DNA of 64,000 bases, taken from the NCBI GenBank assembly GCA_903908715.1, contig CAIVSY010000111.1, forward strand, positions 58,655 through 122,654. Direction: 5' to 3'. This stretch comes from an uncultured bacterium. GTDB lineage: Bacteria; Verrucomicrobiota; Kiritimatiellia; CAIKKV01; CAITUY01. Each line of letters starts with the position of its first letter. Within the stretch, counting starts at the first letter, position 1. Shown here one piece after another: positions 16,309 to 58,783 of this stretch. The notes under the pieces are model-generated. The model was not told the DNA's origin. It searched no databases and saw only the letters and a program-made list of their open reading frames with translations. Position numbers and translations under genes: made by a program.

Positions 16309-16311
16309 ACC

Positions 16312-18441: not shown

Positions 18442-18446
18442 AACCT

Positions 18447-30421: not shown

Positions 30422-30608
30422 ATTCTCCTGCCTTCCTTGCGTTAAATAAATCGGGTGACCCCGGCGACTCCTTCCGCCGGAGAAGAAACGATACTGTAGA
30501 GCATGCCGCCTGTACGTCAACAACATATTCCCGCGCTCCACCAGCCTGCTTTTCCTGTTGCCAATCCTCCGTTTCTCTTGGCACCCTGATCTCCTGACAG
30601 GGAGAACC

Positions 30609-32620: not shown

Positions 32621-32796
32621 GATTCTCCTCTGGAATAGGTTCACATAACAAGTGCCGTCATCGAACCACACACACGTCCGGTAATCCAGAAAAAACCTGC
32701 TTTCCGCAACGCCTGCGCTCCTTGCCGACTGTCTTCGCACTTGCGCCAAGATCCAGCCGGGTGTACATACAAAGGCACAACCAACGAGGTGTTCCA

Positions 32797-37713: not shown

Positions 37714-39024
37714 TCAGCCTTCAACAACTTGCATGGCAATCCCGGCCCATTCCGTCAGACGAGCCGGATCATATCGTACCGTGCTGATATCCTTGAGAAT
37801 GATCTCCAGAGGACACCCGTGCCTTTGACAGATCGTGCGCGTTGCCAGAAGATCGGCTCTCACCTGGTCCCCATGGAACTGGTCCGTAGCGAGAAAGGCA
37901 GGACTGGGCTTGCGGGAGTACACGAATTCGTCGCGCATTTCCGCTGCCCCGCGCTCCTGATCGACCCACGGGCTCATGGAAACCTTGCGGACGTTCGGAA
38001 TCTTACGCACCTGCGCCATCTTCATGTCCAAGGGTTCACAGCAGCCGTAATAGACCAACCCGAAGCGCCTGGCGATCCGGCTGACATATGTTACCTCGAA
38101 TTCATCGAACATGTCGGGTGAAACCGTACCCAGCATCTGCGCCATGGAGAACATCCAAAGGTCCTTGACCCTCGGGGAATCCGGATTATAGCCGGGCGCC
38201 GGCAGGTCATCCGTATAAGCCCCCGTGCAATGCACTTCATCCTGCGGACCGCAAAGCAATCCCTGCGCCTCCAACTGGTCCAGTTGGCTCAAATATCCAT
38301 CCGTCACACGGGAAAGCAGCTCATGCATCAGTTCCGGGTTGTCTACCATCATGTAAAGGGCATTCTCAACCCCCATCCACATGGAGACGGGGTCCCAGAT
38401 GGTCTTGTAGGACGGATCCGCCCCGGACGCGCGCACTTCCAGCAAGCCATCGAAAAGCTCATGCGCGACCGCCATCTTCTGCTCCGTTTCAGCGGCCTCA
38501 TGCCAGATGCGGGGCATCTTGATCTTCTCAAGATCCTCCATGGTGTTGAACTGGTTCTCGTACTTGTGCCCAACGACGCTGTTTGAGGGATCGCCCACCG
38601 CAATCTCCTCCTGGATCGAAACGCCAAAACCCGTATTGTGGATAACCTTGTGCACGTCAATATAAGACTCCACGACCTTATCCACCGGGAAATGCCGCCA
38701 CTGGTAGAGGGTCTTCCGCAGAATGTCCTCGTAGTAGCGGCAGAAGGAATCCGTGCAACGCAAGGTCAACTCATCGTTGACGTTGATCTCGTTCCAGCAC
38801 ACCTGATCGATCATGACCATCGGACGGACCGGCTTGCGTGCGTTGAGCTTACGCCACATGGCGCGCTTCTCTGCCTGGACAGGCAACGCTGCAATTTCCG
38901 CAACACGGGCCGCCAAGTCGCGTATGATCTTCTTGTCCTGCGCACATATCTTCATGGTGTCCAAACTCTCTCCCATTGCCTGACCCAAGAGGGCACGGTC
39001 TGCCATCGACATGAACCGACGCAA
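37714..39024 (-). CDS. Hypothetical protein (URO-D/MtaA-like fold suspected)
   Basis: 436 aa, natural composition, no TM segment. Weak resemblance to uroporphyrinogen-decarboxylase-family (MtaA/CmuA-type) proteins. Confidence 0.4.
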   Translation of the reverse strand: MRRFMSMADRALLGQAMGESLDTMKICAQDKKIIRDLAARVAEIAALPVQAEKRAMWRKLNARKPVRPMVMIDQVCWNEINVNDELTLRCTDSFCRYYEDILRKTLYQWRHFPVDKVVESYIDVHKVIHNTGFGVSIQEEIAVGDPSNSVVGHKYENQFNTMEDLEKIKMPRIWHEAAETEQKMAVAHELFDGLLEVRASGADPSYKTIWDPVSMWMGVENALYMMVDNPELMHELLSRVTDGYLSQLDQLEAQGLLCGPQDEVHCTGAYTDDLPAPGYNPDSPRVKDLWMFSMAQMLGTVSPDMFDEFEVTYVSRIARRFGLVYYGCCEPLDMKMAQVRKIPNVRKVSMSPWVDQERGAAEMRDEFVYSRKPSPAFLATDQFHGDQVRADLLATRTICQRHGCPLEIILKDISTVRYDPARLTEWAGIAMQVVEG

Positions 39025-39126
39025 AAACTATGGGGTATCACGTCAGGAGTCAACTTCCATCACAACGGCTGCGGAACAACTGCTTTGGGCTTTCCTCTCA
39101 GAGCCGAATGTTCCTATAATGGCCGG

Positions 39127-44184: not shown

Positions 44185-44531
44185 TTCGAAAAGCCGCCGA
44201 AATGAAAACCGAAGTCCGCTCCGCCATGCGCGGAGGGTCCGGGTCCGTCACCATCCAGCATTTCTTCGAAAAGGAAGAAATCACCGCCAAGTCGCGCCTG
44301 TGCGCCCGCCTGACACTTCCGCCTGGATCCAGCATTGGCGTGCATGATCACGTGAACGAGGATGAAGTCTACATCATTACAAAAGGCACCGGGGTCTTGA
44401 ACGACGGAAAGTCCAACACGCCTGTTTCCGCCGGGGACGCGGTTCTCACGGGCAAAGGGGAATCACACGCCATCACCAATACCGGCTCATCCGATCTGGA
44501 AATCATCGCCGTCATCCTGTGCTATGCCTGA
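44181..44531 (+). CDS. Cupin domain protein
   Basis: 116 aa from ATG 44181 (GGAGGA ribosome-binding site). The start overlaps the peptidase stop (ATGA). Cupin motifs G(V)HDH…E and G…H…N. Confidence 0.65.
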   Translation: MIRKAAEMKTEVRSAMRGGSGSVTIQHFFEKEEITAKSRLCARLTLPPGSSIGVHDHVNEDEVYIITKGTGVLNDGKSNTPVSAGDAVLTGKGESHAITNTGSSDLEIIAVILCYA

Positions 44532-45648
44532 CCCCGAAGCCATGCTGCCAGATACCCTCCTCCTGCCTGCCCACGTCCTGCACACAAGGGGAGCCATTCG
44601 TAAACTGCTTCCGGAATGCCTCCGCTACGGCCGCCGGGGTCTCATCCTTCACGGACGGGCACTGGAAACCCGCGGCACCGTCGCCTCCCTCCTGGGCCCC
44701 GCCCCGGACGGCTCTGATCTCGTCATTCTCCGCCATCAAGGCGGGGAACCAACCGTCGCCGAACTCGACGCCCTGATCCAGAAAATCCATGCGCATGGCA
44801 CCGAATGGGTCGCTGGAATCGGCGGGGGCAGTGTACTGGACCTCGCCAAAGCCGCCGCCGCCCTCGCAAATGCACCCCGCGACCCCTGGCAATACCATGA
44901 TGGCGCGCCATTGGAAACTCCCGGCATTCCTTTCATCGCCGCCCCCACCACGGCAGGAACCGGCTCGGAGGCCACCGTCAATGCTGTTCTGACGAACGAG
45001 CGGACCAACTGCAAGAAATCAATCCGGGATCATTCCATGATGGCGCGCATCGTCATCCTGGATGCCGACCTCCTCACTTCCTGCCCGCATCCCGTCATCG
45101 CGGCCTCAGGAATGGACGCCCTCACACAGGCAATCGAGGCCTTCACCAGCCGGCATGCAACCACCTTCAGTGACGCCCTCGCCCTGGAAGGCATCCGCCT
45201 CCTGTCCGCCAACCTTCTCCCTGGCTGGGAAAATCCGGAGAGCCCGCATATGGACGCCCTTCTGTCCGGCAGTTTCCTGGCAGGCATCGCCCTGTCTTCC
45301 GCCCGGCTGGGCGTCGTTCATGGCATTGCCCACCCCCTGGGTTCCATCTACCATATGCCCCACGGGCAAGTCTGCGCCGCATGCCTGCCGCATGCCATCG
45401 ACCTAAACCGGGAAGTCATCGGAAGGAAATATGACCGGATGAGTCAGACGATTGGCACCGACCTTCAGACCTTTGTCAGACAACTCGCCTCCGGGCTCGG
45501 ACTGGGACGCCCTTTCGCCGGTCTGCCTGTGAAAGACCGCGAACGAATCATCGCCGAAACCTTGTCATCCGGCTCCACCAAGGCAAACCCCAAGACCATC
45601 GACCGCAAGGATGTGGAATGGATGCTGGACCGCCTTTTCAGAATCTAG
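44524..45648 (+). CDS. Iron-containing alcohol dehydrogenase family protein
   Basis: 374 aa. Fe-ADH GGGSVLD nucleotide motif and metal-binding His cluster (HGIAHPLG, HMPHG). Overlaps the cupin gene by 8 nt. Confidence 0.8.
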   Translation: MPDPEAMLPDTLLLPAHVLHTRGAIRKLLPECLRYGRRGLILHGRALETRGTVASLLGPAPDGSDLVILRHQGGEPTVAELDALIQKIHAHGTEWVAGIGGGSVLDLAKAAAALANAPRDPWQYHDGAPLETPGIPFIAAPTTAGTGSEATVNAVLTNERTNCKKSIRDHSMMARIVILDADLLTSCPHPVIAASGMDALTQAIEAFTSRHATTFSDALALEGIRLLSANLLPGWENPESPHMDALLSGSFLAGIALSSARLGVVHGIAHPLGSIYHMPHGQVCAACLPHAIDLNREVIGRKYDRMSQTIGTDLQTFVRQLASGLGLGRPFAGLPVKDRERIIAETLSSGSTKANPKTIDRKDVEWMLDRLFRI

Positions 45649-45866
45649 GCACAAGCAAACCATCGCAACCACGGATCGAGCAGACATCGGCTTCGCTTCA
45701 GGCGTGGCAGCCCTCACAAACACTATTGCTTTCCACAAGTCATTCTGGCATAGGGTCCATTTCGCAGAAACGGGTATCGGCAAGAAGAGCAAACGACAAC
45801 ACCGGGGCCGACAACGCCGGGCATTCAGAAAGTCATAATAGAAACAATCAGGAAAACAGGATAGCC

Positions 45867-47135
45867 ATGCAGAGAAAACAGCAAACTCCCATTCGCGTCG
45901 GCGTCATCGGCGTGGGCCGCGGTGAGAGCTTCGCGAACGGCGCCAACGACCTCACCGGCATGAAGCTGGTCGCGCTCTGCGACCAGTGGAAGGAGCGCGT
46001 GGAACGATCCGCGAAGAACTACGGCGTAACCGCTTACACCGACTTCGACAAGTTCCTCGAGCATGACATGGATGCCGTGATCCTGGCGAACTACTTCCAC
46101 GAACATGCCCCCTTCGCCATCAAGGCGCTGGAAGCAGGCAAGCACGTGATGAGCGAGTGCAGCAGCAACGCCACCCTCGCAGAAGGCGTCGCCCTGTGCC
46201 GCGCGGTCGAGAAGTCAAAGAAAATCTACATGCTCGCCGAGAACTACCCCTACACGAAGTTCAACATGGAGATGCGCCGCCTGTACGGGACCGGTGAGAT
46301 CGGACGGGTCATGTTCGCCGAGGGCGAGTACAACCACCCTATGGACATCGAATCCAACGCCTCGATCTCACTGGGCGAGAAGCATTGGCGCAACTGGATT
46401 CCCTCCACCTACTACTGCACCCATGCGCTGGCGCCGCTGATGATGATCACCGACACCATGCCCATCTCCGTGAACGCCCATGCCATAGCCGGCCGCGATG
46501 TGACCGAGGCGGACTACGCCGGCAAGCGGAACGACCCCGGCAGCTGCATCCTCTGCCGCATGGACAACGGAGCGGTCTTCCACATCTTCGGACTCTGGTG
46601 TCCGGGGCACAGCAACTGGTACCGCGTCCACGGCACCAAGGGCGCCATGGAGGTCGTGCGCGGCCACGGTTACTTCGGCACCGAGCAGGTCCGCGTCTGG
46701 CACGAGGAATGGCACCGCGGCAAAGGCGTGCCGTCCGAACGGGTCTATGTTCCCGACTGGCCGGAGCACGGCGACCTTGCGAGCCGGGCCGGCCACGGCG
46801 GCGGTGACTTCTGGACCAACTTCGAGTTCGTCAATGCCATCCGCACCGGCAAGCAGCCGTACCTCGACGTCTACCGCGGCGTGGCCATGAGCTCGGTCGG
46901 CATTCTTGCCTGGAAGAGCGCGTTACAGAACGGCGCGCCATTCGAGATGCCGGACTGGAAGAAGGAATCCAGCCGCAAGAAGTGGGAGAACGACCAGTGG
47001 TCGCCGTTCCCGTCGCATGCCAACCGCCAGCCCAACCAGCCGCCGCCCAGCATCCTCGGGATGAACGAGCCCTCGGCCGCGAACATGGCCCGGGCCCGCA
47101 AGCTATGGAAGAAGCATGGCTACAAAGGGAAGTGA
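45867..47135 (+). CDS. Gfo/Idh/MocA family oxidoreductase (paralogue 1, GHGGGDFW motif)
   Basis: Start at ATG 45867. IRVGVIGVGRG Rossmann motif. Shares ENYPY and AGHGGGDFW blocks with the ORFs at 50874 and 55144. Confidence 0.8.
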   Translation: MQRKQQTPIRVGVIGVGRGESFANGANDLTGMKLVALCDQWKERVERSAKNYGVTAYTDFDKFLEHDMDAVILANYFHEHAPFAIKALEAGKHVMSECSSNATLAEGVALCRAVEKSKKIYMLAENYPYTKFNMEMRRLYGTGEIGRVMFAEGEYNHPMDIESNASISLGEKHWRNWIPSTYYCTHALAPLMMITDTMPISVNAHAIAGRDVTEADYAGKRNDPGSCILCRMDNGAVFHIFGLWCPGHSNWYRVHGTKGAMEVVRGHGYFGTEQVRVWHEEWHRGKGVPSERVYVPDWPEHGDLASRAGHGGGDFWTNFEFVNAIRTGKQPYLDVYRGVAMSSVGILAWKSALQNGAPFEMPDWKKESSRKKWENDQWSPFPSHANRQPNQPPPSILGMNEPSAANMARARKLWKKHGYKGK

Positions 47136-47172
47136 GCAGAGTTCATAAAATGAACCGCAAAGATGCACCCTC

Positions 47173-47913
47173 ATGAACCCCTGGGATATAGCCCTGATCG
47201 CCGTGGTCTCGGTCATGGGAACCGCCGTGGCCTACCTCCGCAATCCGCAACATAAGGCGTTCATGCTGATGCTCCCGGTGCCGTTCTCCCTGGCAACCAT
47301 GTCAGTGGGGCAACCGGTCGACGCCACAAATGTCGTGGGGATCGCTGTCCTGTTCCTTTTCTCCGCAGGGGTCTGGTTCCTCCATGCCCGCCTCCGCTGG
47401 CCCATCGTGCCAGTGATCCTCCTCTGCGCCATCGCCTACTGCCTCATCGGATCTGGACTGGCTCGTCTGCTCCCTAAGGGTAATCTCGCCTTCTGGGCGG
47501 CAATCGCCATCGTCGGCCTCATCGCCCTGCTCCTGATACGGAGCCTCCCCCATTTGGAGGAACCCCACTACCGCACACCGCTGCCCGTCTGGATCAAACT
47601 TCCGGCCATTGCGCTGATCATTCTTGGCATCGTTGCCATCAAGCAGCAACTCGGCGGGTTCATGACCGCATTCCCGATGGTCGGCACCATCACCGCCTAT
47701 GAGGCACGGCACAGCCTCTGGACCATCCTCCGGCGCATCCCCTGGATCATGATCCTCATCCTCCCCATGCATAGCGTCATGCGTCTCACCCAGGACCATA
47801 TCGGGGTGGGCGGGGCGCTGCTGGTCGGCTGGCCGGTTTTCCTGTTTTTCCTCTGGCTCCTGCGCAGAAGCTACACCGTGGCGTCCCACCCTATCGCACA
47901 AGGGGAGGCATGA
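47173..47913 (+). CDS. Polytopic membrane protein, unknown function
   Basis: 246 aa with about 7 hydrophobic helices. Its stop overlaps the start of the next gene (ATGATG). Confidence 0.5.
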   Translation: MNPWDIALIAVVSVMGTAVAYLRNPQHKAFMLMLPVPFSLATMSVGQPVDATNVVGIAVLFLFSAGVWFLHARLRWPIVPVILLCAIAYCLIGSGLARLLPKGNLAFWAAIAIVGLIALLLIRSLPHLEEPHYRTPLPVWIKLPAIALIILGIVAIKQQLGGFMTAFPMVGTITAYEARHSLWTILRRIPWIMILILPMHSVMRLTQDHIGVGGALLVGWPVFLFFLWLLRRSYTVASHPIAQGEA

Positions 47914-49640
47914 TGTTCATGCGTTGGCCAAGATCCTGCCTTGCGCCTGGTCAAAGGTTACTGGCAACAATCGCGGGAGGACTGCTCATGATCGTGAATG
48001 CCCATGCCGCCGGGGAAGACGACCCGATCCGCCTGCACGTCGGTAACCGTGTGCTGAACCCGATTGATTCACGTCTCTTCGGGCAGTTCCTCGAACGCCC
48101 GAGCTGGGGTGAGACCGGGCCGGAAGCGGCGGTAAACCATGAGGGATCCCTGCCGGGAGACATCACCACGGAACTGCGCGCCATGCGCATCCCCATTGTG
48201 CGCTTTCCAGGCGGCACGGATGTCGACTTCACCGACTGGACCGACATGGTTTCAAATGTGCCCGGCCGCGCGGAACCCGGCCGCCCCGTCACCGTGGGAC
48301 ACCAAGGCCACAAGGTGACGAACCGCTTCGGCTACGATGAATACTTCCGCCTCGCCAAGGACCTGGACTGGCAGACCATCCTGGTCGTCAACTTCCTCGA
48401 CGGCCTGCTGAAGCGCAAGCCGCTTGATGAGGCCGCACGCCACGCGGCCGGCCTCGTCGCCTACGTCACTGCCCGCGAAGGCTCGAAACTCCCCCCGGGA
48501 ATGCCAGACTGGCCCGCCCTGCGCCGTTCCAACGGGCACGCCGAGCCGCATGGGGTCAGGATCTTCCAGATCGGCAACGAATGGTTCATGGGGCATTACA
48601 AGGAGCATGCCCTGAAGACCACCGGCGCCAGGGACATGAAGGAGTTGGCCGCCTGGTACGTCACCTGCATCGCTGCCTACGCGGATGCCATGCGCGCGGT
48701 GGATCCAGGCATCGAACTCATCATGGATGCCCAGATGGGCGACGGCGAACTCGAGCGGCTGGTACTCGAGCATCCCGAGGTCCGGCGCCGCGTCCAGTAT
48801 GTGGCCATGCATCGCTATGCACCGTGGAAGACCGCAGCCGCCGAACGCGACGGCAAGTCCGTCCCCTTGGACAGCCTCGATCCGGCGGAGACCTGGCTCG
48901 CCCTGGCCTCCACTCCAGGCTGCTATGAGGACGGGGTGAGTACTGCCTTCGGAACAAGGCACCTCTTTCTTAAGGACCTCGGCTACAAGGTCGCGGCCAC
49001 CGAATGGAACTGGAACGGATCCGGCCTGCGTGCGCTCAGGCTGCCTGCCGGCCTCCATTACACCCATGCCGCCGCTCTCGGCGCCGCCGGCTTCCTGCAG
49101 GGCCTGCTGCGCCTCGGCGACCTGGTCGCCATCGCCAACCAGTCCATGCTGGTTGGCCAGAACTGGCAGATCGCCGCCATCCGCCCGGCCAACCCGGAGA
49201 AGGGGTCTCCCCTCCACCTCAACGGCCAGGGGGCCGTGACCACCCTTTACAACCTCCACCACGGCGACCGCCGGCTGGAACTCACCGCGGAGCATGTGCC
49301 GACAGTCGTGCAGCATCTGGCACTGGGAGCGGCCTCTCCGATTCCGCAGGTTGCCCTGCTCGACGCAGTGGCCACCCGCTCCGAAAAGTCGCTCTACCTG
49401 CACGTAATCAACCGCGCCTGCGACCGGGACCTTGCGGCGGAAATCGACCTGAAAGCACTCGGCGTGGGCGACAGCAGGGCGACACTCCATTCACTCGTCC
49501 CCGCACCGATGGAAGCCGATCCGCGGAAGATGCGCGCGATCATGATCAACCAGGACGCAACGGCGACGGTCCGAAACGGGATCGGCGCTGTGGTTTTTCC
49601 GCGATGCTCGGTCTCGGTAATGGAAATCAATCTCGAATGA
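47910..49640 (+). CDS. Secreted glycoside hydrolase, clan GH-A-like (β/α)8 barrel plus C-terminal β-sandwich (GH51/GH79-like)
   Basis: 576 aa. Signal peptide (…LLMIVNAHAAG), FQIGNEWF (NE acid/base motif of clan GH-A), and a C-terminal β-sandwich region. Confidence 0.5.
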   Translation: MMFMRWPRSCLAPGQRLLATIAGGLLMIVNAHAAGEDDPIRLHVGNRVLNPIDSRLFGQFLERPSWGETGPEAAVNHEGSLPGDITTELRAMRIPIVRFPGGTDVDFTDWTDMVSNVPGRAEPGRPVTVGHQGHKVTNRFGYDEYFRLAKDLDWQTILVVNFLDGLLKRKPLDEAARHAAGLVAYVTAREGSKLPPGMPDWPALRRSNGHAEPHGVRIFQIGNEWFMGHYKEHALKTTGARDMKELAAWYVTCIAAYADAMRAVDPGIELIMDAQMGDGELERLVLEHPEVRRRVQYVAMHRYAPWKTAAAERDGKSVPLDSLDPAETWLALASTPGCYEDGVSTAFGTRHLFLKDLGYKVAATEWNWNGSGLRALRLPAGLHYTHAAALGAAGFLQGLLRLGDLVAIANQSMLVGQNWQIAAIRPANPEKGSPLHLNGQGAVTTLYNLHHGDRRLELTAEHVPTVVQHLALGAASPIPQVALLDAVATRSEKSLYLHVINRACDRDLAAEIDLKALGVGDSRATLHSLVPAPMEADPRKMRAIMINQDATATVRNGIGAVVFPRCSVSVMEINLE

Positions 49641-49668
49641 AAGCACTGCAATCAAGGGGACATCCTCA

Positions 49669-50835
49669 ATGAACAACACGCAAGGGTTTACTCAGTTTTC
49701 CGGAAAGTGGCAGGAACGCGCACAGCTCACATGGGATACCATTGCGCTGAAGCCCACGAAGGGCATTCCCACCTGGGGCATCAACGACATGCAATGGTCG
49801 CACTTGGATGACCTGAGCGGCAACCCGCGCGGCAGCTATGAGAGGGAGCCCGAACGCGTATACCTGGAGTTCCAGCAGAAGGCCGTGGGCTGCTGCGGCG
49901 GTGACCAATGGATCCCCACCAACCCGCTCTCCATGAAGGACCAGGGCTATGAGACCGAAGAGCGCAGCGCCACAACCGGATCACACGAGATTGTCTGCGA
50001 CGGCATGGTGATCGACTCGCCGGAGGCGGTCGTCGAGCATTTGGAGAAACATTGGTTCCCAAACATGGTGTCCTGGGGGCAGAACGTGGAGAAGGACGCG
50101 GACGCGTTCGTTGCCAGGCACATCGCCGAGGAAGTGGACATCCAGAAGTTCTTCGGAATGAACATGCTCAAGTGGCCCTACTGGAACATGCATCCCCACT
50201 TCCGGTACTACGAATACGGCTACGAGAACTACTTCATGGCCTACGCGCTCTATCCGGAGGTGATCGAGCACGACTTCAAGTTGCAGGCGGACCTTGGCGA
50301 GATCCACAACAAGCTGTATGCCCGCGCCATCATCGAGGGCGGGCTCCCGCGCCTGATGCGGCTCGATCACGACATGGCTGACTCGCGCGGCATGCTTGTG
50401 GACATCAAGACGCTCGACAAGATCTGGCTCCCCCACTTCGCACGCTCCATCAAGCCGCTGATCGATGCCGGTATTCGCTGCATCTGGCACTGCGACGGTA
50501 ACCTGATGGACCTCGTGCCGCGCCTGCTGGAGTCCGGGCTCGGCGGCTTCCAGGGGTTCCAGTACGAGGATGGCATGGATTACGAGAAGATCTGCAAGAT
50601 GAAGACCCGCGACGGCGACGACCTCTTCATCATCGCCGGCGTCTCGGTCACCACCACCATCCCCCTCGGCACACCCGCCGACATCCGCAAGCAGATGAAG
50701 TGGCTCGTGGACAACGGCCCGAAGCGCGGCCTCATGCTGGGCGGATCCAGCTCCATCGCGCCCGGTGTGCCGATCGAGAACATCAAGGCCCTGTGCGAGG
50801 GTTTTGCGTATTACCGCGAACACGGAAGAGGATAG
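49669..50835 (+). CDS. Uroporphyrinogen decarboxylase (URO-D) family protein, MtaA/CmuA-like
   Basis: 388 aa. CDGNLMDLVPRLLESGLGGFQGFQ and LMLGGSSSIAPGVPIENIKAL resemble the URO-D/MtaA C-terminal half. Confidence 0.55.
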   Translation: MNNTQGFTQFSGKWQERAQLTWDTIALKPTKGIPTWGINDMQWSHLDDLSGNPRGSYEREPERVYLEFQQKAVGCCGGDQWIPTNPLSMKDQGYETEERSATTGSHEIVCDGMVIDSPEAVVEHLEKHWFPNMVSWGQNVEKDADAFVARHIAEEVDIQKFFGMNMLKWPYWNMHPHFRYYEYGYENYFMAYALYPEVIEHDFKLQADLGEIHNKLYARAIIEGGLPRLMRLDHDMADSRGMLVDIKTLDKIWLPHFARSIKPLIDAGIRCIWHCDGNLMDLVPRLLESGLGGFQGFQYEDGMDYEKICKMKTRDGDDLFIIAGVSVTTTIPLGTPADIRKQMKWLVDNGPKRGLMLGGSSSIAPGVPIENIKALCEGFAYYREHGRG

Positions 50836-50873
50836 GAAGAGTCTAGAAGGAATCCAGAAGAGAAAGACAGACA

Positions 50874-52820
50874 ATGAAACAGGTAAAGCTATTCAACACC
50901 AACAAGCGCGTCAAACTGGGCATGTGGGGGCTGGGGCGCGGCTTCAGCTTCTTCGACATGTGCAAGCAGCTCAACATCGATGTGGTCGCCGGCTGCGACT
51001 ACAACGAGCACATGCGCGAGAACTTCCTGCGCCACAACCCCGGCGCCTTCGCCACGGCCGATGCGGATGAGTTCCTGCAACAGGATTTCGACGCGGTGCT
51101 GCTGGCCACCTATTGCCCTAACCATGCACCCGATGCCATCCGTTGCCTCAAGGCGGGCAAGCATGTGTTGTCGGAGGTAACCTCTTTCCGCACCATGGCC
51201 GAGGGCGTCGAACTGGTCGATGCGGTCGAGAAATACGGGAAGATTTACAACCTGGCCGAAAATTATCCCTTCAGCGCGGCCAATTCATGGCTCACCCGGA
51301 AGTGGAAGGAAGGCCTCTTCGGCGAGCTCCAGTACGCCGAGTACGAGTACGTCCACGAGTGCCGCGGCCTCCAGTACACCTACATCGATGGCGTGCCGGT
51401 CCAGCCCGGCCACGCCCTGCACAATTGGCGCAGCTGGCAGGCGTACCACTATTACTGCACCCACTCGCTCGGCCCGGTCATGATCATCACCGGCCTGCGG
51501 CCGGTCCAGGTCGTGGCGCTCCCTACGGCCCACGCCATCCCGGGCCAGGTCCGGCCCCGCGTTGACGGGCATGATATGGCGGTCGCGCCCTCGCTCATCC
51601 GCATGAGCAATGGCGGCGTGGTCCGCAATCTCATGGGCACCACCACAAACGACACCCACCACCAACGCCTCTGGGGCACGCTCGCCTCAGCTGAGGTCGA
51701 AGGCGACAGCCTCTCCCTGCGCCTGGGCGGGTCCGGCGGAACCCTCAAGCAGCCCGTCACACCCAGCTGGGACAGCCTCGGAAAACTGGCAGCCAGTACC
51801 GGCCACGGCGGCGGCGACTTCTGGGTCCTTTACTACTTCGTCCGCCAAATCCTCACGGGTGAACCGGCCCCGTTCGACATCTACACCGCCGCCGATGTCA
51901 CCATCCCCGGCATCCTCTCCCTGCGCTCCGCAGTGGAGGGCGGCAAGGCCTACGACGTCCCGGACTTCCGCGATAAGGCCCAACGCGAAGCCTGGCGCAA
52001 CGACACCTGGGCCCAGGAGCCGATCGACACGCGGACCTACGCATTCGGACCTGGCGCAGATACATCACGCGGCGCGGCCGACTTCTCCCGCACGATGGCC
52101 GACCTTACCCGCCACGCCCCGGATGTGCGCGCCTGGCTCGATTGGCAGAAGGTCGAGATCCAGAGCCCCGAGGCCATCGTTCCGGTCGGACAGACCGTCG
52201 TGAACAATCATCCGGCCACCGTCGAGATCTACCGGCGCGCCCGCCGTATCGCCGAGGCCTACCCCGGCACCGAAGGCGCACGCGTACTGCTGGAGATGCT
52301 CGACCTCGGCTGCGAGAAGGATGTCCTGGACAAGGGGTTCCTGGCCAAGGTCAAGCGGACGCTCGCCGCCATCAAGCGCAAGCACAACCTCTCCGGACTT
52401 CGCATCGAGGACGTCAAGGCCACCGGCCTGTTGCCGAAGCCGAAGAAGATCGCCGAGGCGGTCAAGCCCGGCAAAACGGTGCGCTTCTCGCATGACGCCG
52501 AGTTCGCAACCCACGGCGGCGGCATGTGGTTCGTCTGCCACATCCACGAGAAGAAGAAGGACGGCCTAATCTACCTGCGCGGCACGATCGATATGGCGAA
52601 GGCTGGCAAGGGCACGCTCCTCTACGGCGTGGACGGCCCCGCCAAACTCTGGCTGAACGGCAAGGAAGTGGATTGCCGGCCTGCCGCGAAAAATCCCGTC
52701 ATTCCCGATCAGTACAAGCTCAACGTGTCCTGGAAGAAAGGCGCAAACGAGGTACTCTTCGCGCTGGATACAAAGAAGGGCCATTCCTGGGGCGTCTGCG
52801 CACGGGGCGAGTTGAATTAG
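50874..52820 (+). CDS. Gfo/Idh/MocA family oxidoreductase (paralogue 2) fused to a roughly 250-aa C-terminal extension
   Basis: The N-terminal 400 aa is a Gfo/Idh/MocA fold with ENYPF and TGHGGGDFW motifs. The extension ends in a β-sandwich-like segment (…KLWLNGKEV…). Confidence 0.75.
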   Translation: MKQVKLFNTNKRVKLGMWGLGRGFSFFDMCKQLNIDVVAGCDYNEHMRENFLRHNPGAFATADADEFLQQDFDAVLLATYCPNHAPDAIRCLKAGKHVLSEVTSFRTMAEGVELVDAVEKYGKIYNLAENYPFSAANSWLTRKWKEGLFGELQYAEYEYVHECRGLQYTYIDGVPVQPGHALHNWRSWQAYHYYCTHSLGPVMIITGLRPVQVVALPTAHAIPGQVRPRVDGHDMAVAPSLIRMSNGGVVRNLMGTTTNDTHHQRLWGTLASAEVEGDSLSLRLGGSGGTLKQPVTPSWDSLGKLAASTGHGGGDFWVLYYFVRQILTGEPAPFDIYTAADVTIPGILSLRSAVEGGKAYDVPDFRDKAQREAWRNDTWAQEPIDTRTYAFGPGADTSRGAADFSRTMADLTRHAPDVRAWLDWQKVEIQSPEAIVPVGQTVVNNHPATVEIYRRARRIAEAYPGTEGARVLLEMLDLGCEKDVLDKGFLAKVKRTLAAIKRKHNLSGLRIEDVKATGLLPKPKKIAEAVKPGKTVRFSHDAEFATHGGGMWFVCHIHEKKKDGLIYLRGTIDMAKAGKGTLLYGVDGPAKLWLNGKEVDCRPAAKNPVIPDQYKLNVSWKKGANEVLFALDTKKGHSWGVCARGELN

Positions 52821-52838
52821 ACAAAAAGGGAACACCAC

Positions 52839-53906
52839 ATGACCGACCTCATCCATATCAAGGACGTTGACCGCAAGTTCTACGCCGAGCGCATCCGGGA
52901 CTGGCTGCCGGAAAGAATCATCGACGTTCACACCCATATCTGGCGCAAGAGCGACTTTGTCGCGAACGAAAAGGTCAAAGGCGCACAGAACATTGTCAGT
53001 TGGCCCGGCCTCGTGGCCGCCGATAACCCGGTCGAGGACCTGGTCGAGACCTACAGGCTCATGTTGCCCGGCAAGAAGGTCACCCCGTTGGTCTTCCCGA
53101 CCGTGCCGCAGGAGGGCAACCTCGAGGCCCAGAACCGGTACACGTCCGAGGCGTCGAAAAGGGCAAAGCTTCCGGCCCTGATCTGGAGCAGCCCGAAGTG
53201 GAGCGCCAGCGAATTCGAGCAGCGCATCCGCAACGGCGGCTTTCTCGGCATCAAGGCCTACCTCACCGACGCCGCCGACTACATTCCGGCCAAGGAGGTG
53301 CGGATGTACGACTTCTTCCCGCACCACCAGCTCGAGGTCTGCGACCGCAACAAGTGGATCGTGATGCTGCACATCCCGCGGGATGGCCGTCTTAAGGATC
53401 CGGTCAACATCGCACAGATGATTGAGATCGACCGCGACTTCCCGAACGCGCAGGTCATCATCGCCCACGTCGGCCGCGCCTACGTCGACGCCGACATGGA
53501 GGGAGCCTTCGAGAAGCTTTCCGTGACGCGAAACATCGTCTTCGACTTCTCGGCCAACACCAACGCCAACGTCTTCACGGCCCTCCTGCGCTGCGTCGGA
53601 CCGAAGCGGGTCTGCTTCGGCAGCGACATGCCCATCCTGCGCATGCGCATGAAGCGCATCGAGCGCAACGGCCACTACGTCAACCTCGTCCCCAGGGGCC
53701 TCTACGGCGACGTCTCGAACGACAAGAACATGGGCGAAGTCGACGGCGCCGAAGCCGACGCCCTCACCTTCTTCCTCTACGAGGAACTCAACGCCTTCCG
53801 CACAGCCGCCGAACGCGTCGGCCTCTCCCGCGCCGACCTCGAGGACGTCTTCTACAACAACGCGGCGCACATACTGAAGAAGGCCGGATATGCAAACCTT
53901 GGCTAG
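52839..53906 (+). CDS. Amidohydrolase-2 family metal-dependent hydrolase (TIM barrel; lactonase/decarboxylase family)
   Basis: 355 aa. IDVHTHIW N-terminal His-x-His metal motif and a later HVGRAY…D pattern. Confidence 0.65.
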   Translation: MTDLIHIKDVDRKFYAERIRDWLPERIIDVHTHIWRKSDFVANEKVKGAQNIVSWPGLVAADNPVEDLVETYRLMLPGKKVTPLVFPTVPQEGNLEAQNRYTSEASKRAKLPALIWSSPKWSASEFEQRIRNGGFLGIKAYLTDAADYIPAKEVRMYDFFPHHQLEVCDRNKWIVMLHIPRDGRLKDPVNIAQMIEIDRDFPNAQVIIAHVGRAYVDADMEGAFEKLSVTRNIVFDFSANTNANVFTALLRCVGPKRVCFGSDMPILRMRMKRIERNGHYVNLVPRGLYGDVSNDKNMGEVDGAEADALTFFLYEELNAFRTAAERVGLSRADLEDVFYNNAAHILKKAGYANLG

Positions 53907-54012
53907 CGGAGGCTACCCAAAAGAACTGGAGGGCCGGTTTTCACCCCGACCCAAGAGCAGCGGGCGGCGTGGAAGCCGTCCCTCCACAGGTAAGAAACGA
54001 TAAGGACACAAT

Positions 54013-55104
54013 ATGGACACCCTGCTGTACAAGTCCGACTGGAAGGAAACCAAGGAACGCTACAAGGCCTGGTGGAATCATGAGTACATCGGCCGCGCCG
54101 CCATCTGGGTGGAGGCGCCGCTGGACAATCCGCCGCCCATTGCCGAACCGCCCCGCCATACCTCGGTGCACCAGAAGTGGTACGATCTCGAACACATCGA
54201 CCGCTGGAACCGGTACAACATGGCCCGGACGTTCTACGGCGGTGAGGCGGTTCCCCACTGGCACCCCGGCTATCCCGGCAACAACAGCATGTACGCGCTG
54301 CTGGGAGGCAAGGTCAACCTGGATGAGGAGACCGGGTGGGCCGACGAACATCACCTGCCGCTGGCTGAGAACACGGATTTCCGCCGCCTCAAAACCAACC
54401 TCCAGCACCCCGACTGGCTATGGACTCAGGAGATGCTGCGCTTCGCGGTTGAGCGCTCAGCCGGCAAGTGCCTTGTCGCCACCGGCGCTTTCGGCGGCTC
54501 CGGCGACACGCTGGCGGGCCTGCGCGGCAACCAGCAACTTCTCGTCGACTGCATGGACTGCCCCGACTGGGTGCGCGAGGCCGACCTCTATCTGATGGAT
54601 CTCTGGATCGAGCACTACGAGCGCCTCTACGCCTGCGTGGACCAGCACAATGAGGGCTCGATCGGCTGGTTCCCGCTCTGGGCACCCGGAAAATTCTACG
54701 CCGCCCAAAACGACTTCTCCTACATGATCGGGCCCCACACCTTCCGCGAACTGTTCATGCCGGCGCTGCGCAAGCAAATGGACTACCTGGACTATGCCAT
54801 CTACCATGTGGACGGCAAAGGTGCCTTTGCCCACGTCGAAGCCCTCTGCGAGATCGAACGGCTCCAGGCCATCCAGATCCTGCCCGGCGAGGGGCAGCCC
54901 AGTGCACTGCATTTCATGGATGTGCTGCACAAGGTGCAGCGCGCGGGCAAGAACCTCCAATTCTACCTGCCGCCCGATGAAATCGAACAGGCCCTGTCGC
55001 AACTGTCTGCACGTGGACTGATCATCCACACCTGGGCGCGCAGCGAGACCGAGGCCAGGGAACTCCTGAGGAATGTGGAGCGGTGGTCCGTCGACAGGGG
55101 ATAA
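54013..55104 (+). CDS. Hypothetical protein
   Basis: 363 aa, natural composition, no TM segment. Sits between the amidohydrolase and the third Gfo/Idh/MocA gene. Confidence 0.45.
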   Translation: MDTLLYKSDWKETKERYKAWWNHEYIGRAAIWVEAPLDNPPPIAEPPRHTSVHQKWYDLEHIDRWNRYNMARTFYGGEAVPHWHPGYPGNNSMYALLGGKVNLDEETGWADEHHLPLAENTDFRRLKTNLQHPDWLWTQEMLRFAVERSAGKCLVATGAFGGSGDTLAGLRGNQQLLVDCMDCPDWVREADLYLMDLWIEHYERLYACVDQHNEGSIGWFPLWAPGKFYAAQNDFSYMIGPHTFRELFMPALRKQMDYLDYAIYHVDGKGAFAHVEALCEIERLQAIQILPGEGQPSALHFMDVLHKVQRAGKNLQFYLPPDEIEQALSQLSARGLIIHTWARSETEARELLRNVERWSVDRG

Positions 55105-55143
55105 GGAATTTGTTATAGAGCCCGGCAACAGGAGACAAACGAC

Positions 55144-56253
55144 ATGAAATCCACGCTCAATCTCGGAATCGTTGGAGCCTGCGGACGCGGTTCCAGCTTC
55201 AAGGCCGCCTGCGACGCCATGCCCAATGTTTCCGTACACGCCGTGTGCGACACGAACGAGGCAGGCCTCGCCGAGGCCCGCGAGCGCCTCGGGGCCCGTG
55301 AGCAATACACCAGCTACGAGGCCATGATCGAGAAATCGGACCTCGACGCGGTCATCATCGGCACGCCCATGCATTTCCACGTGCCGCAGGCGCTCGCCGC
55401 GCTCCAGCGCAACCTGCACGTGCTTTCTGAAGTGACCGCCGGGATCTCGATCGAGGAATGCCGCGCGCTCGTCGCCGCCTGCAAGGCGAGCAAGGGCGTC
55501 TATATGATGGCCGAGAACTACACCTACATGCAGCAGAACGTGATTGTCCGCGAGTTGGTCCGCCGCGGCCTGTTCGGAACGCCGTACTACGCCGAGGGCG
55601 AATACATCCACGAGCTCAAGGGCCTGAACGAGGCCACCGTCTGGCGCCGCAAGTGGCAGACCGGCATCAACGGCGTCACCTACGGCACCCACAGCCTCGG
55701 CCCCATTCTCCAGTGGATGCCCGGCGAACGCGTGGTCTCCGTTTGCGGCGCCGGCTCAGGCCACCATTACCGCGACGCGCGCGGCGCCCAGTACGAGAAC
55801 GAGGATTCCTGCATCATGCTCTGCAAAATGACCTCCGGCGGCCTGGTCAAGATCCGTGTGGACATGCTCTCCGACCGCCCGCATGCCTGCACCAACTACC
55901 AGCTCCAGGGCACCGATGGCGCCTACGAGTCCGGCCGGGCGCATGGGGAGAAGGACCGCGTCTGGCTGCGTGCGCGCTCCTCGAACTGCGACAACTGGAC
56001 CGACCTCGCCGATCTCAAGGAGGAATTCCTCCCCGACTTCTGGAAGGAAGGCATGGAGCGCGCCGAGGCAGCCGGCCACGGCGGCGGTGACTACTTCGAA
56101 ATCCTCGACTTCGTCGACGCCATCCTCGGCCGACGCCCTTGCCCCATCGGCATCCACGAGGCGATGGATATGACCTTGCCGGGGCTGGTCAGCCAGCAGT
56201 CCATACTCCGGAGCGGAGCCTGGCTCGATGTCCCCGATTCGCGCACATGGTAA
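55144..56253 (+). CDS. Gfo/Idh/MocA family oxidoreductase (paralogue 3, GHGGGDYF motif)
   Basis: 369 aa. LGIVGACGRG Rossmann motif, ENYTY and AGHGGGDYF blocks. Confidence 0.8.
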   Translation: MKSTLNLGIVGACGRGSSFKAACDAMPNVSVHAVCDTNEAGLAEARERLGAREQYTSYEAMIEKSDLDAVIIGTPMHFHVPQALAALQRNLHVLSEVTAGISIEECRALVAACKASKGVYMMAENYTYMQQNVIVRELVRRGLFGTPYYAEGEYIHELKGLNEATVWRRKWQTGINGVTYGTHSLGPILQWMPGERVVSVCGAGSGHHYRDARGAQYENEDSCIMLCKMTSGGLVKIRVDMLSDRPHACTNYQLQGTDGAYESGRAHGEKDRVWLRARSSNCDNWTDLADLKEEFLPDFWKEGMERAEAAGHGGGDYFEILDFVDAILGRRPCPIGIHEAMDMTLPGLVSQQSILRSGAWLDVPDSRTW

Positions 56254-56353
56254 AAAGCCGCCCGCCCAGGAATCGGACGCGGTTGAGTCGATCCGGCGCA
56301 CGCCCTGCACCATGGAACGGATTGACGAGCACCGGCTTGGAATGCCGAATTCT

Positions 56354-57175
56354 TCACCCCCCTGACCGGGCAACCGGTGTTTCTCCCAGCAATAGCTGAA
56401 GGACAACATCCGCCTGCATGTGCGCCGCAATACCCACTCGCGGCGCCATCAGCCCACGTCCCGGTCGCGCATCCTTCTGCAGGTCTCCGATCACATACAC
56501 GCGGGCGCCCATCTTCAGCACCCCCAGGCTCTCCAGTGAACCGTAGCCCGCCACCCCGGAAGCCATGACCACCGGTTTCCCGGGAAATGCCTGTCCGAAG
56601 CTCTCTACAAGCATCGCCTTGGCCTGCGGGGAATCAAACGCTTCCACCAGAATATCCACCCCTCCAAAAACCACCGGGACATTCCCGGACTCGAGTCGCA
56701 CACAGTGTGTCACAACCGTCACATAGGGATTCACCCGGCGAAGATTCGACGCCAGCGCCTCCGTCTTTGGCAGCCCCAGCTGATCGACAAAATACTGCTG
56801 GCGGTTCAGGTTGGACGGCTCCACAACATCGAAGTCGGCCAGCACAAGGCAGCCCACTCCCGTGCGGGCCAATGCGACGGCAACCGCCGAACCCAGACCT
56901 CCGAGCCCCGCAATCCCCACAACGGCGGACTTCACCCGCTCATGCACGCCGGGCGTGTGGCGTGCCACCAGCAGGAACTCCAACTCCTCGCGCGAAGGGA
57001 TTTCCCCCCTGCGTATAAACACCACGCGGTCGCCCTCCGACAGGGCACAATCCTTCGCCGCAACCGCTCCATTCCGGATGACGACGTCGGCCCCCGGCCT
57101 GAGCCGGTCGCGCAGGGAAAAAAGGCTTATGCCTTCCTCCACCTCCACGACCTGCTCCGCCACATGGACATGCAT
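56354..57175 (-). CDS. thiF: ThiF-family adenylyltransferase with N-terminal ThiS-like β-grasp domain
   Basis: N-terminal 60 aa ThiS-like (…GDRVVFIRRGE) with no GG at the junction. ThiF Rossmann motif VGIAGLGGLGS. The protein ends …ARSGG. Confidence 0.7.
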   Translation of the reverse strand: MHVHVAEQVVEVEEGISLFSLRDRLRPGADVVIRNGAVAAKDCALSEGDRVVFIRRGEIPSREELEFLLVARHTPGVHERVKSAVVGIAGLGGLGSAVAVALARTGVGCLVLADFDVVEPSNLNRQQYFVDQLGLPKTEALASNLRRVNPYVTVVTHCVRLESGNVPVVFGGVDILVEAFDSPQAKAMLVESFGQAFPGKPVVMASGVAGYGSLESLGVLKMGARVYVIGDLQKDARPGRGLMAPRVGIAAHMQADVVLQLLLGETPVARSGG

Positions 57176-57205
57176 ATTCCCACCGCCATTCGCCCTGCAA
57201 GAGGA

Positions 57206-58783
57206 TCAGAACGTCGCCGAGAACGACATGGTCGCATGGATCTGGTGCGCGATCTTCGCGACCACCGCTTCCTCCACGCCCTTGTTCACGCGGAAAATCG
57301 CAAGCGACTGGTCACTGTTCATGGGATGCGAATGGCGCACATCTTCGATATTCAGCGAAGCCTCCGCCAAGGCCGCGCCAATCAATCCGACCACACCGGG
57401 CCGGTCCTTGTACTGGAAGCACACCACATGCCCCTTGGGCTCGAAATAGAGCTTGTCGAAATCATTGATCCTCGAAACCATCACCACGCCTTCGGCCACG
57501 GTCCCGCGGACGCTGACCTGCTTCATAGTCTGAGCATCGATGTTTCCGATGAGATCCACTGTGATCGAATTCGCAAAGCCCTTCCGGTCATCCGGCTGGC
57601 GGCTTCGGTAGGAAATGCCGCGTTCCTGCAGGAACTTGAGGGCCACCTTCGAGTCCGCCGAACGGTTGAACTCCTCCCACAAGGCGGCCACCGCCGGAAC
57701 CACCAGGTAATCGGCGAACGGCTGCAGCGAACCGTAGCAGCTCATCTCGATCTCCTTGAGGTTGGCCCCCTTGCCCAGAACCATCCGGCAAACCTTGGCA
57801 AGCGTGTTGACCAGAACACAATAGGCTTCATCCAGTCCTTCCGGGATATCCCGGTTGACGATGTAGGACGTCACGCCCTTTTCATCGAACTCAATCAGTT
57901 GCTCGGCGGAACGCCGCGCGGCATTCGCGTTGGCCTCCTTGGTGCTGGCCCCCAGGTGCGGCACCATGATATCCGCAATATCCGCGATGCTCTTCGGGCC
58001 TGGCTCGTCCTTGGGATACACGTCATTCAGAAGGCGCAGCCCCTTCTCCGCCTTGCTCTTGCGGAACGCGTCCTCGTCCAGCACGCCGGCGCGCGCGCAG
58101 TTGATGACCGTGGCGCCTTTCTTCATCAGGCCCAGCAGCTTGGCGCCAATCAGTTTCTTGGTCTCGGCGGTCTCGGGAATGTGGAGACTCACATAGTCGG
58201 ATTTGGCAAAAATCGTCTCCAGGTCCGTCAATTCCACATCCACTTCCGAGGCGCGTTCGGCCGACACCATGGGATCATATCCCAGCAACCTGCACTCGAA
58301 CCCGGAAAGCCTCTTTGCGACGAGACGTCCGATGTTCCCCAGTCCGACAATGCCCACGGTCTTGCCGGCCACTTCACGGCCCATGAACGCCTTCTTTTCC
58401 CACTCCCCTGCGCGACAGGAGGCATCCGCCTTGATCAGGTGCCGCGCATCGGCCAGCATGAGCGCCACGACTTCCTCGGCCACGCCGTTGGAATTCGCCC
58501 CCGGCGTGTTCATCACGTCCACGCCCTTCTTGCGCGCATACTTGGTGTCGATGGTATTGAAACCCGCTCCCGCCCGGATCACAACCTTGAGCGACGGCAG
58601 CATATTGATGATATCAGCCGTGACCGGTTCGCTGCGCACGATGAGCGCATAGGCATCGGGATGCTTTCCACACAAGGCCACCACATCACCGCCATCGTCC
58701 TGTACGACCTCATAATGACCGTTCGCCTTGAGAATATCCCCTGCCACCTTGTCCAACTTCGTGGGTATCAACACCTTCTTCAT
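57206..58783 (-). CDS. serA: D-3-phosphoglycerate dehydrogenase
   Basis: 525 aa. 2-hydroxyacid dehydrogenase NAD motif GIVGLGNIGR, catalytic R/E/H, and C-terminal ASB/ACT domains. Confidence 0.9.
   Translation of the reverse strand: MKKVLIPTKLDKVAGDILKANGHYEVVQDDGGDVVALCGKHPDAYALIVRSEPVTADIINMLPSLKVVIRAGAGFNTIDTKYARKKGVDVMNTPGANSNGVAEEVVALMLADARHLIKADASCRAGEWEKKAFMGREVAGKTVGIVGLGNIGRLVAKRLSGFECRLLGYDPMVSAERASEVDVELTDLETIFAKSDYVSLHIPETAETKKLIGAKLLGLMKKGATVINCARAGVLDEDAFRKSKAEKGLRLLNDVYPKDEPGPKSIADIADIMVPHLGASTKEANANAARRSAEQLIEFDEKGVTSYIVNRDIPEGLDEAYCVLVNTLAKVCRMVLGKGANLKEIEMSCYGSLQPFADYLVVPAVAALWEEFNRSADSKVALKFLQERGISYRSRQPDDRKGFANSITVDLIGNIDAQTMKQVSVRGTVAEGVVMVSRINDFDKLYFEPKGHVVCFQYKDRPGVVGLIGAALAEASLNIEDVRHSHPMNSDQSLAIFRVNKGVEEAVVAKIAHQIHATMSFSATF

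Follow-up and report, generated by a model that had tools for sequence, protein, structure and literature searches.

An uncultured bacterium of the class Kiritimatiellia (Verrucomicrobiota) carries a block of eight co-directional open reading frames (ORFs), three of which encode Gfo/Idh/MocA proteins, at positions 45867–56253 of the plus strand of the 64,000-nucleotide stretch analyzed here (contig CAIVSY010000111.1, positions 58,655 to 122,654, assembly GCA_903908715.1; this whole stretch is referred to as the window). The block represents one copy of a widespread, uncharacterised cytoplasmic module of a carbohydrate-catabolic type, which, with a probability of about one half, would apply redox-assisted chemistry to an imported glycoside. 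Besides Gfo1, Gfo2 and Gfo3, it encodes two predicted TIM barrels of the uroporphyrinogen decarboxylase (URO-D)/MtaA fold, termed ORF4 and ORF7, an amidohydrolase-2 family enzyme, a polytopic membrane protein and a secreted, divergent GH51-like glycoside hydrolase (GH).

A first-pass annotation, made by a model from the DNA alone, had described the block as an oxidative glycan-processing locus. Its eight co-directional genes are borne out by the ORF list, with intergenic gaps of -4 to 106 bp, and by the public gene calls on the same contig, which match all eight ORFs except that the GH gene starts at 47988. The three Gfo/Idh/MocA proteins (PF01408 in all), the amidohydrolase-2 enzyme (PF04909, E 1.4e-23), the membrane protein whose stop codon overlaps the start of the GH gene, and the GH with its signal peptide and FQIGNEWF motif were likewise recovered. 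Where it listed two URO-D/MtaA-like proteins plus a hypothetical protein, the URO-D-like pair stands but the separate ninth gene does not, as both entries correspond to ORF 54013–55104. The overall idea of an oxidative glycan pathway survives in part: a carbohydrate-catabolic role with redox-assisted chemistry is plausible, whereas the sketched lyase and lactonase route found no support.

Three Gfo/Idh/MocA proteins related to GH109

A comparison with all solved structures in the PDB by phmmer identified GH109 enzymes as the closest relatives of Gfo1 (45867–47135, 422 aa), Gfo2 (50874–52820, 648 aa) and Gfo3 (55144–56253, 369 aa) alike, with both domains covered. Gfo3 is the most GH109-like of the three, matching the Akkermansia enzyme AmGH109A (6t2b) with E 1.2e-27 over residues 5–365 of 369 and the Elizabethkingia enzyme NagA (2ixa) with E 1.9e-24. 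Gfo1 matches 6t2b with E 1e-17 in two stretches, the N-terminal domain and the GHGG-loop region, which comprise about 64% of the protein, and Gfo2 does so with E 2.7e-15 over about 40% of its 648 residues, corresponding to about two thirds of its Gfo part. By comparison, DgpA, levoglucosan dehydrogenase, the AL/BT-type 3-dehydrogenases, inositol dehydrogenases and biliverdin reductase match the Rossmann half only (E 1e-5 to 1e-14); the values for the inositol dehydrogenases (about 1e-11) and biliverdin reductase (1e-5) stem from N-terminal matches. The three proteins thus group with sugar-active enzymes rather than with inositol or biliverdin-type reductases, with GH109 as the best match throughout (E 1e-27 to 3e-15). 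A previous study assigned proteins to GH109 if they matched the Akkermansia enzyme with E ≤ 1e-6 and along at least 50% of the query (PMC5615132). With phmmer in place of BLASTP, the three proteins fall within these limits, Gfo2 only if its Gfo part is counted.

The catalytic residues of AmGH109A are Tyr226, His259 and His404, the last of which lies in the GGHGG loop (PMC10755693). In alignments with 6t2b and 2ixa, they correspond to Tyr in EGEYxH and to His in THxLxP and GHGGGD, respectively, motifs which read EGEYNH, YYCTHALAP and GHGGGDFW in Gfo1 and EGEYIH, TYGTHSLGP and GHGGGDYF in Gfo3. The Tyr/His/His triad is invariant in all 51 module Gfo ORFs found in 34 loci of the survey described below. 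The Lys position of the classical Glu-Lys-Pro (EKP) motif is occupied by Asn in 45 of these 51 proteins (AENYPY in Gfo1, AENYTY in Gfo3) and by Thr in the other 6. EKP is kept by a family of neighboring genes, Gfo_c9, and by a fourth Gfo protein of the window (31490–32806, minus strand). NagA and AmGH109A, which are NAD+-dependent α-N-acetylgalactosaminidases, have in common with the module proteins the two-domain Gfo/Idh/MocA architecture, Glu-Asn in place of Glu-Lys-Pro, and the Tyr, His and GGHGG His residues. In contrast to these enzymes, the window proteins lack a signal peptide, are only about 20–30% identical to them by alignment inspection and, in the case of Gfo2, carry a 250-aa extension. 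As predicted from these alignments, Gfo1–3 have a GH109-type active site, and GH109-type glycoside cleavage is their most likely mode of action.

The Pfam domain scores vary among the three. The Rossmann domain PF01408 scores 63 bits in Gfo1, 28 bits in Gfo2 and 62 bits in Gfo3, and Gfo1 also matches PF22725. The C-terminal domain Glyco_hydro_109_C (PF21252) scores 49.7 bits in Gfo3 (cutoff 27) and 22.1 bits, below the cutoff, in Gfo2; for Gfo1 it was absent from our own Pfam scan, yet is listed among the hits of a precomputed annotation. The fourth Gfo protein combines its EKP motif with a DDGGHGGAD loop, and its gene adjoins a 597-aa ORF without Pfam match (32803–34596, minus strand) and a class II fructose-bisphosphate aldolase gene (29465–30928, minus strand).

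A second group of cytoplasmic Gfo-fold glycosidases is formed by the NAD+-dependent GH188 sulfoquinovosidases such as SqgA, which serve as a gateway to an isomerase-kinase-aldolase-type route (PMC10755693), as the module enzymes would in the pathway proposed below. Their His residues are structurally conserved with those of GH109, and SqgA keeps a lysine, Lys107, which contacts the C3 hydroxyl group (PMC10755693). GH188 gives weak matches (E 3e-8 in the N-terminal part, 3e-5 at the GHGG region), and sulfonate-handling genes are absent from the locus.

Gfo1–3 had been regarded as recent paralogues on account of shared ENYP[YF] and GHGGGD[FY][WF] blocks. The second block is indeed present in all three, whereas the first is found in Gfo1 and Gfo2 and reads ENYTY in Gfo3. 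Since their pairwise identity is 32–37%, as opposed to about 52–79% with orthologues in other phyla, the paralogues are ancient, not recent. Orthologues of Gfo1 (54–73% identity) occur in 14 other loci, those of Gfo3 (52–79%) in 17 loci, and those of Gfo2 (53–68%) in the loci L013, L026, L047 and L049, with the full extension kept only in L047. This extension consists of a helical part and a terminal domain of about 90 aa, and has no sequence relatives in the PDB when searched alone. The final ~90 residues of Gfo2 (region 52400–52817, residues ~510–648) have no Pfam model and yield 376 matches at E ≤ 1e-3 among 1.8 billion representatives; they also terminate GH20, GH127, GH32-like, DUF2961 and HEAT/PA14 proteins. 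Possibly, this mobile unit is a new domain for glycan binding or for localisation.

Recurrence of the gene set across phyla

A scan with the ORF7 family, using one genome per species, returned 80 loci from many phyla; 83 related loci were available in total, and gene families were defined by tblastn and all-against-all clustering of the ORFs in these loci. A core set of ORF4, ORF7, a GH109-like Gfo protein and the amidohydrolase, sometimes joined by the membrane protein, is present in 37 of the 83 loci, which belong to the Lentisphaerota, Verrucomicrobiota, Planctomycetota, Armatimonadota, Omnitrophota, Chloroflexota, TA06, Desantisbacteria and Bacillota. Counted over these 37 loci and the window, GH109-like Gfo genes occur in 34, ORF4 in 26, the amidohydrolase in 23 and the membrane protein in 5. 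Where ORF7 and a module Gfo gene are both present (31 loci), they adjoin each other directly in 23. The closest syntenic loci are L013 and L075, and they suggest an affinity of the source bacterium to the Lentisphaerota (Victivallales).

Because the same set recurs across phyla, the arrangement goes beyond chance. Families of the Gfo/Idh/MocA type are abundant in phyla of the Planctomycetes-Verrucomicrobia-Chlamydiae (PVC) type, and the window itself contains the fourth Gfo gene elsewhere, so that a fortuitous grouping without functional unity might be considered for a Gfo-rich genome of this kind. Furthermore, the Gfo/Idh/MocA Rossmann domain is not specific to GH109, and dbCAN's model for GH109 has a known lack of specificity (PMC5615132). 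A fortuitous grouping is nevertheless hardly to be entertained, as members of at least nine phyla have the same orthologous set in a tight, co-directional arrangement.

The core is accompanied by recurrent neighbors: an AraA-like isomerase and an FGGY kinase nearest to xylulokinase (16 loci each), a DeoR regulator and a DeoC/LacD-type class I aldolase (13 loci each), a classical levoglucosan-dehydrogenase-like Gfo protein (12 loci), two class-III aminotransferase families (8 and 7 loci) and a third URO-D-like family (6 loci). Further neighbors include MFS or CUT1 ABC transporters, GNAT and hexapeptide acetyltransferases and a DegT aminotransferase. Independently, searches that started from ORF4 homologues gave the same set, with an alanine dehydrogenase and a histidinol-dehydrogenase-like gene in addition. 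They also revealed a convergent GH127 gene in locus L091 and a GH51 gene together with a distant ORF7 paralogue in locus L090, such that arabinofuranosidase-family genes unlike the GH of the window flank the module in two other genomes.

These neighbors bear on the main rival explanation, in which the Gfo proteins act as ordinary dehydrogenases or reductases on a free sugar or amino sugar, an aminopolyol or a cyclitol, without cutting a glycosidic bond. An unusual monosaccharide would then be turned into a standard aldose by redox chemistry and transamination, with the URO-D-fold proteins and the amidohydrolase acting as isomerases or decarboxylases. The class-III and DegT aminotransferases, alanine dehydrogenase, histidinol-dehydrogenase-like gene and acetyltransferases that recur beside the module would suit such a route, as would the frequent classical EKP-type Gfo neighbor and the cytoplasmic location which hydropathy predicts for all enzymes concerned. 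On the other hand, the GH109-type catalytic triad is invariant, the C-terminal domain of Gfo2 is otherwise found on glycoside hydrolases, and GH51 or GH127 genes flank the module in the window, L090 and L091. Taken together, we consider this explanation possible but rather unlikely.

Some related loci deviate from the common pattern. In L090 (GCA_046766175.1, 10001–18658), the ORF4 orthologue is accompanied by an AraC regulator, a canonical GH51 enzyme (607 aa), an aminoglycoside-type N-acetyltransferase, two unknown 470-aa proteins, the ORF7 paralogue (25–30% identity) and a sulfatase, with no GH109-like Gfo gene; hence a Koshland glycosidase, in place of such a Gfo protein, can accompany the URO-D-fold pair. 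In eight other loci (L003, L011, L012 and five more; e.g., L003, 6772–11083), the ORF7 homologue is not associated with Gfo genes. It lies directly 3' of a gene for a protein of about 1078 aa, whose only domain is Glyco_hydro_42M, and both genes are embedded in an operon for the biosynthesis of tryptophan (trpE, G, D, C, F, B, A).

Partner proteins and surroundings of the block

In a Pfam scan of the block, three Gfo/Idh/MocA proteins, one weak URO-D match and one Amidohydro_2 protein were identified, while ORF7 matched nothing and the membrane protein and the GH gave only sub-threshold matches. ORF4 (49669–50835, 388 aa) matches PF01208 with its C-terminal half alone (residues 218–377, 26.5 bits), and its family is 65–80% identical over hundreds of metagenomic proteins. 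ORF7 (54013–55104, 363 aa) belongs to no Pfam family and has 533 homologues, most of them more than 50% identical, which a few database sources label as methionine-synthase-like or URO-D-like. AlphaFold (AF2) models of ORF7 and ORF4 reach a predicted local distance difference test (pLDDT) score of 93 and 83, respectively, and the top Foldseek matches of both are MtaA and uroporphyrinogen decarboxylase (E ~1e-7 each). According to these models, both proteins are TIM barrels of the URO-D/MtaA fold. The relationship between the two rests solely on the common fold and an aligned HxDG motif; a direct comparison by hhalign was not significant (probability 0.2), and the ORF7 profile found no match among PDB sequences.

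In MtaA and CmuA methyltransferases, zinc is held by a His-x-Cys...Cys site which is present in neither protein. A profile alignment of ORF4 with MtaA (4ay7) places the invariant WHCDGN on LHICGN and SSSIAP on GCGIAP; therefore, both zinc cysteines of MtaA are replaced in ORF4, by Asp and Ser. At the equivalent motif ORF7 carries an invariant YHVDG, i.e., His-Val-Asp as opposed to His-x-Cys. No corrinoid- or B12-binding family was detected in the ten window proteins scanned or in the annotated recurrent neighbor families. Likewise, ORF4 and ORF7 gave no full-length URO-D/HemE match and no NCBIfam HemE match, and their NCBIfam MtaA scores are far under the cutoff (28 bits versus 400). Their identity to MtaA, MtbA, CmuA and HemE is 10–14%, and their gene context differs from that of MtaA and HemE in being one of sugar catabolism. 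Since the zinc cysteines are replaced and a corrinoid partner is lacking, neither ORF4 nor ORF7 is a canonical methyltransferase or HemE. A divalent-metal active site of the sugar type may be inferred from the invariant His-x-Asp and from numerous other invariant positions with aromatic or acidic residues.

The same data speak to the first-pass idea of a methylated glycoside, if this is taken to mean that the pair would be MtaA-type methyltransferases that O-demethylate methylated sugars. The MtaA fold of both proteins is compatible with it, and locus L092 (11762–13234) encodes, between the amidohydrolase and a class-III aminotransferase, an MttB-superfamily (trimethylamine/quaternary-amine methyltransferase-like) protein; nothing else in the vicinity of the module points to methyl transfer. 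Given His-Cys-Asp with Ser-Ser-Ser in ORF4 and His-Val-Asp in ORF7 at the positions of the zinc ligands, the missing corrinoid protein and the low MtaA score, demethylation is very improbable.

The amidohydrolase (52839–53906, 355 aa) keeps its metal ligands H31, H33, H178, H210 and D263 (HxH, His, His, Asp) invariant in 15 homologues. While the single sequence has no relative in the PDB, the family profile retrieves uncharacterised hydrolases first (3cjp, E 4e-9), followed by salicylate and resorcylate decarboxylases. The Amidohydro_2 family includes lactonases, and the first-pass annotation had proposed this role for the enzyme. Specific support was not found: L-fucono-1,5-lactonase (4dlf), a cog3618 member and the only sugar lactonase structure recovered by the profile, gave a non-significant E of 0.21, notwithstanding the conserved metal ligands.

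The first-pass annotation in effect implied a stepwise scheme comparable to AL/BT2156-2160 or DgpABC, with free 3-keto-glycosides or lactones as products of the Gfo enzymes, a xylose-isomerase-like TIM barrel to cleave the 3-keto-glycosides, and the amidohydrolase as sugar lactonase. The module resembles AL1-5/BT2156-2160, DgpABC and LgdA-C in pairing a Gfo oxidoreductase with metal-dependent TIM-barrel partners and in its presumed redox-elimination logic. AL3/BT2158, DgpA and LgdA share the Gfo family with the module, though through weak N-terminal matches (E 1e-6 to 1e-10), and sequence similarity is restricted to the Rossmann domain. The authors of the AL/BT work moreover predicted further stepwise operons with different architectures (bioRxiv 10.1101/2024.03.25.586180). 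However, the partner barrels of these systems are xylose-isomerase-like or DUF1080 proteins whereas those of the module have the URO-D fold, and the AL/BT enzymes are periplasmic whereas those of the module are cytoplasmic. Neither a xylose-isomerase-like (PF01261) nor a DUF1080 gene was found in the locus or among the annotated conserved neighbor families. ORF 10530–11381, to which 3-keto-glycoside cleavage had been ascribed, does encode a xylose-isomerase-like TIM barrel and is the only such gene, but it has no link to the locus as it lies 35 kb upstream, inside a type II secretion cluster. With Gfo proteins that are GH109-like instead of carrying the EKP lysine of dehydrogenases, and with no significant lactonase match, a stepwise pathway is distinctly improbable. 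The secretion cluster itself (7576–22776; GspE 7576–9282, GspF 9279–10514, secretin 20401–22776) also contains a 665-aa protein without Pfam match (11546–13543) and is an odd site for a gene of the sugar-isomerase fold.

The GH (47910–49640, 576 aa) matches the GH51 arabinofuranosidases 3s2c and 3ug3 (E 4e-15) in an alignment which spans the GNE acid/base, the EWN nucleophile and the C-terminal sandwich up to the C-terminus. Its NCBIfam ArfA match (E 9e-21) reaches 74 bits versus a cutoff of 625 and Alpha-L-AF_C stays under the Pfam threshold; because these family scores are below curated cutoffs, it is a distant GH51 member or belongs to a sister family. With the α-L-arabinofuranosidases of Thermotoga (3ug3) and Geobacillus (1pz3) it shares the (β/α)8 barrel, the C-terminal sandwich, GNE and EWN, yet it is very divergent and secreted. 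Upstream of start 47910 there is a strong AAGGGGAGG; this start codon shares the sequence ATGA with the preceding stop codon and yields a Sec-type signal peptide ending in ...NAHA|AGE. The alternative start at 47988 is preceded by GGGAGG, so that both starts have a Shine-Dalgarno-like GGAGG upstream. The long form is favored, since signal peptides are found at this position in relatives as well. According to hydropathy, the GH is the only one of the soluble proteins with a signal peptide, the other six being of cytoplasmic type.

The GH gene had been listed as part of the locus, but it does not recur as a partner of the module. It has no counterpart in the 83 ORF7-anchored loci, and it was rejected as a core component after a metagenome scan gave five loci with relatives, none of which holds module genes. 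The membrane protein (47173–47913, 246 aa), whose TGA stop codon overlaps the GH start codon at 47910, has 6–9 hydrophobic segments and is a possible transporter. Homologues with 43–62% identity adjoin module genes in L016, L023, L060 and L075. A TauE/SafE identity was rejected, as the match is sub-threshold and occurs in one of five family members.

The 106 bp that separate the amidohydrolase gene from ORF7 contain a stable RNA hairpin (53927–53986, plus strand) recognized as an inverted repeat and by folding, with 25-nt arms and a folding energy of -41.1 kcal/mol (z -3.2 versus shuffles). It lacks a U-tract and was ruled out as a terminator by a pattern scan; a role in the processing or stability of the mRNA within the operon is possible. 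Promoter and terminator scans of the block gave no excess over shuffled sequence, Rfam gave no match at E ≤ 0.1 within 43500–57500, and neither GC content nor its third-position value (GC3) marks the block as foreign.

Ten plus-strand ORFs extend across 44178–56253, eight of them within the block, which is bounded at its 3' end by a convergent ThiF/ThiS-like gene. The two upstream ORFs (44178–45648), identified by Pfam and NCBIfam, encode a cupin (117 aa) and an Fe-dependent alcohol dehydrogenase (374 aa) nearest to the lactaldehyde reductase FucO (NCBIfam 196 bits, below cutoff); the genes overlap by 8 bp and end 219 bp upstream of Gfo1. Possibly the pair is functionally linked to the block, and it would suit the reduction of an aldehyde released by an aldolase. 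Neither gene has homologues in the 83 related loci. Directly upstream of the cupin gene lies a gene for a very large secreted subtilisin-like Peptidase_S8 protein (38638–44184, ~1600–1850 aa), for which the precomputed annotation gives a weak InhA-like MAM match.

Proposed pathway and implications

GH109 enzymes oxidise C3 of their substrate and then carry out elimination, hydration and reduction. Because this chemistry itself comprises all these steps, a redox-assisted, non-Koshland mechanism is plausible for the module. In the pathway we propose, the secreted GH51-like enzyme would trim an extracellular glycan, and a small glycoside or modified sugar would be imported, perhaps via the membrane protein. 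In the cytoplasm, the GH109-like enzymes would use tightly bound NAD+ to oxidise C3 transiently, thereby acidifying H2 and allowing elimination of the C1 substituent, hydration and re-reduction, with the three paralogues possibly supplying different specificities. The putatively metal-dependent URO-D-fold proteins and the amidohydrolase would act on enone or keto intermediates or on the released modified sugar, with isomerisation, hydration, decarboxylation or ring opening as candidate steps. The product might then enter an isomerase-kinase-aldolase route encoded elsewhere in this genome. As aminotransferase and alanine-dehydrogenase neighbors are frequent in other loci, a substrate with an amino group is hinted at; this, like the pentofuranoside connection suggested by the GH51, GH127 and AraA-like links, is a lead, not a finding.

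Several observations weigh against a redox-assisted glycoside-breakdown module. The Gfo proteins of the window are cytoplasmic, whereas the characterised GH109 enzymes are secreted, and in our own scan Gfo1 and Gfo2 are at or below the Pfam threshold for the GH109 C-terminal domain. The GGHGG loop alone is not diagnostic of GH109, because the EKP-type fourth Gfo protein also has such a loop. Moreover, a full GH109 cycle performed by the Gfo proteins alone would leave three further enzymes unexplained. In other loci the GH51-like gene does not accompany the module, and a tblastn search of the 64-kb window yielded no AraA-like, FGGY, DeoC, DeoR or aminotransferase genes.

We found no description of the module in full-text literature searches, and we know of no GH109 genes beside URO-D-fold and amidohydrolase-2 genes. 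The Gfo part is ordinary, because GH109-like genes are a routine entry in gene counts of PVC genomes, for which a non-specific model is often used (PMC5615132). What is undescribed, as far as we found, is that such genes are conserved together with two URO-D-fold proteins which lack the zinc ligands of the methyltransferases, an arrangement that fits the prediction of further non-Koshland architectures (bioRxiv 10.1101/2024.03.25.586180). A bolder version of the proposal, which we put forward tentatively and regard as unlikely, sees the ORF4 and ORF7 families as new metal-dependent sugar-transforming TIM barrels, namely lyases, hydratases or isomerases of 3-keto or enone intermediates, that are obligate partners of cytoplasmic GH109-like NAD+ enzymes. 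They would then form a new non-Koshland architecture, spread by gene transfer over at least nine mostly uncultured phyla and possibly devoted to an amino- or otherwise modified glycoside.

Redox-assisted glycoside cleavage has reportedly proved widespread in recent work. To our knowledge, few architectures for it have been described, namely GH4, GH109, GH188, AL/BT2156-2160, DgpABC and Lgd. If the proposal is true, the module would add one non-Koshland architecture to these, with partner enzymes of a fold linked so far to tetrapyrrole decarboxylation and methyl transfer. The large Gfo/Idh/MocA and "GH109" gene counts of the Lentisphaerota, Planctomycetota, Verrucomicrobiota, Armatimonadota, Omnitrophota and Chloroflexota are largely unexplained. 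Because they are 50–80% conserved across phyla, the ORF4 and ORF7 families represent well-defined targets for enzymology, and the elucidation of a single member would provide an annotation for thousands of metagenomic genes.

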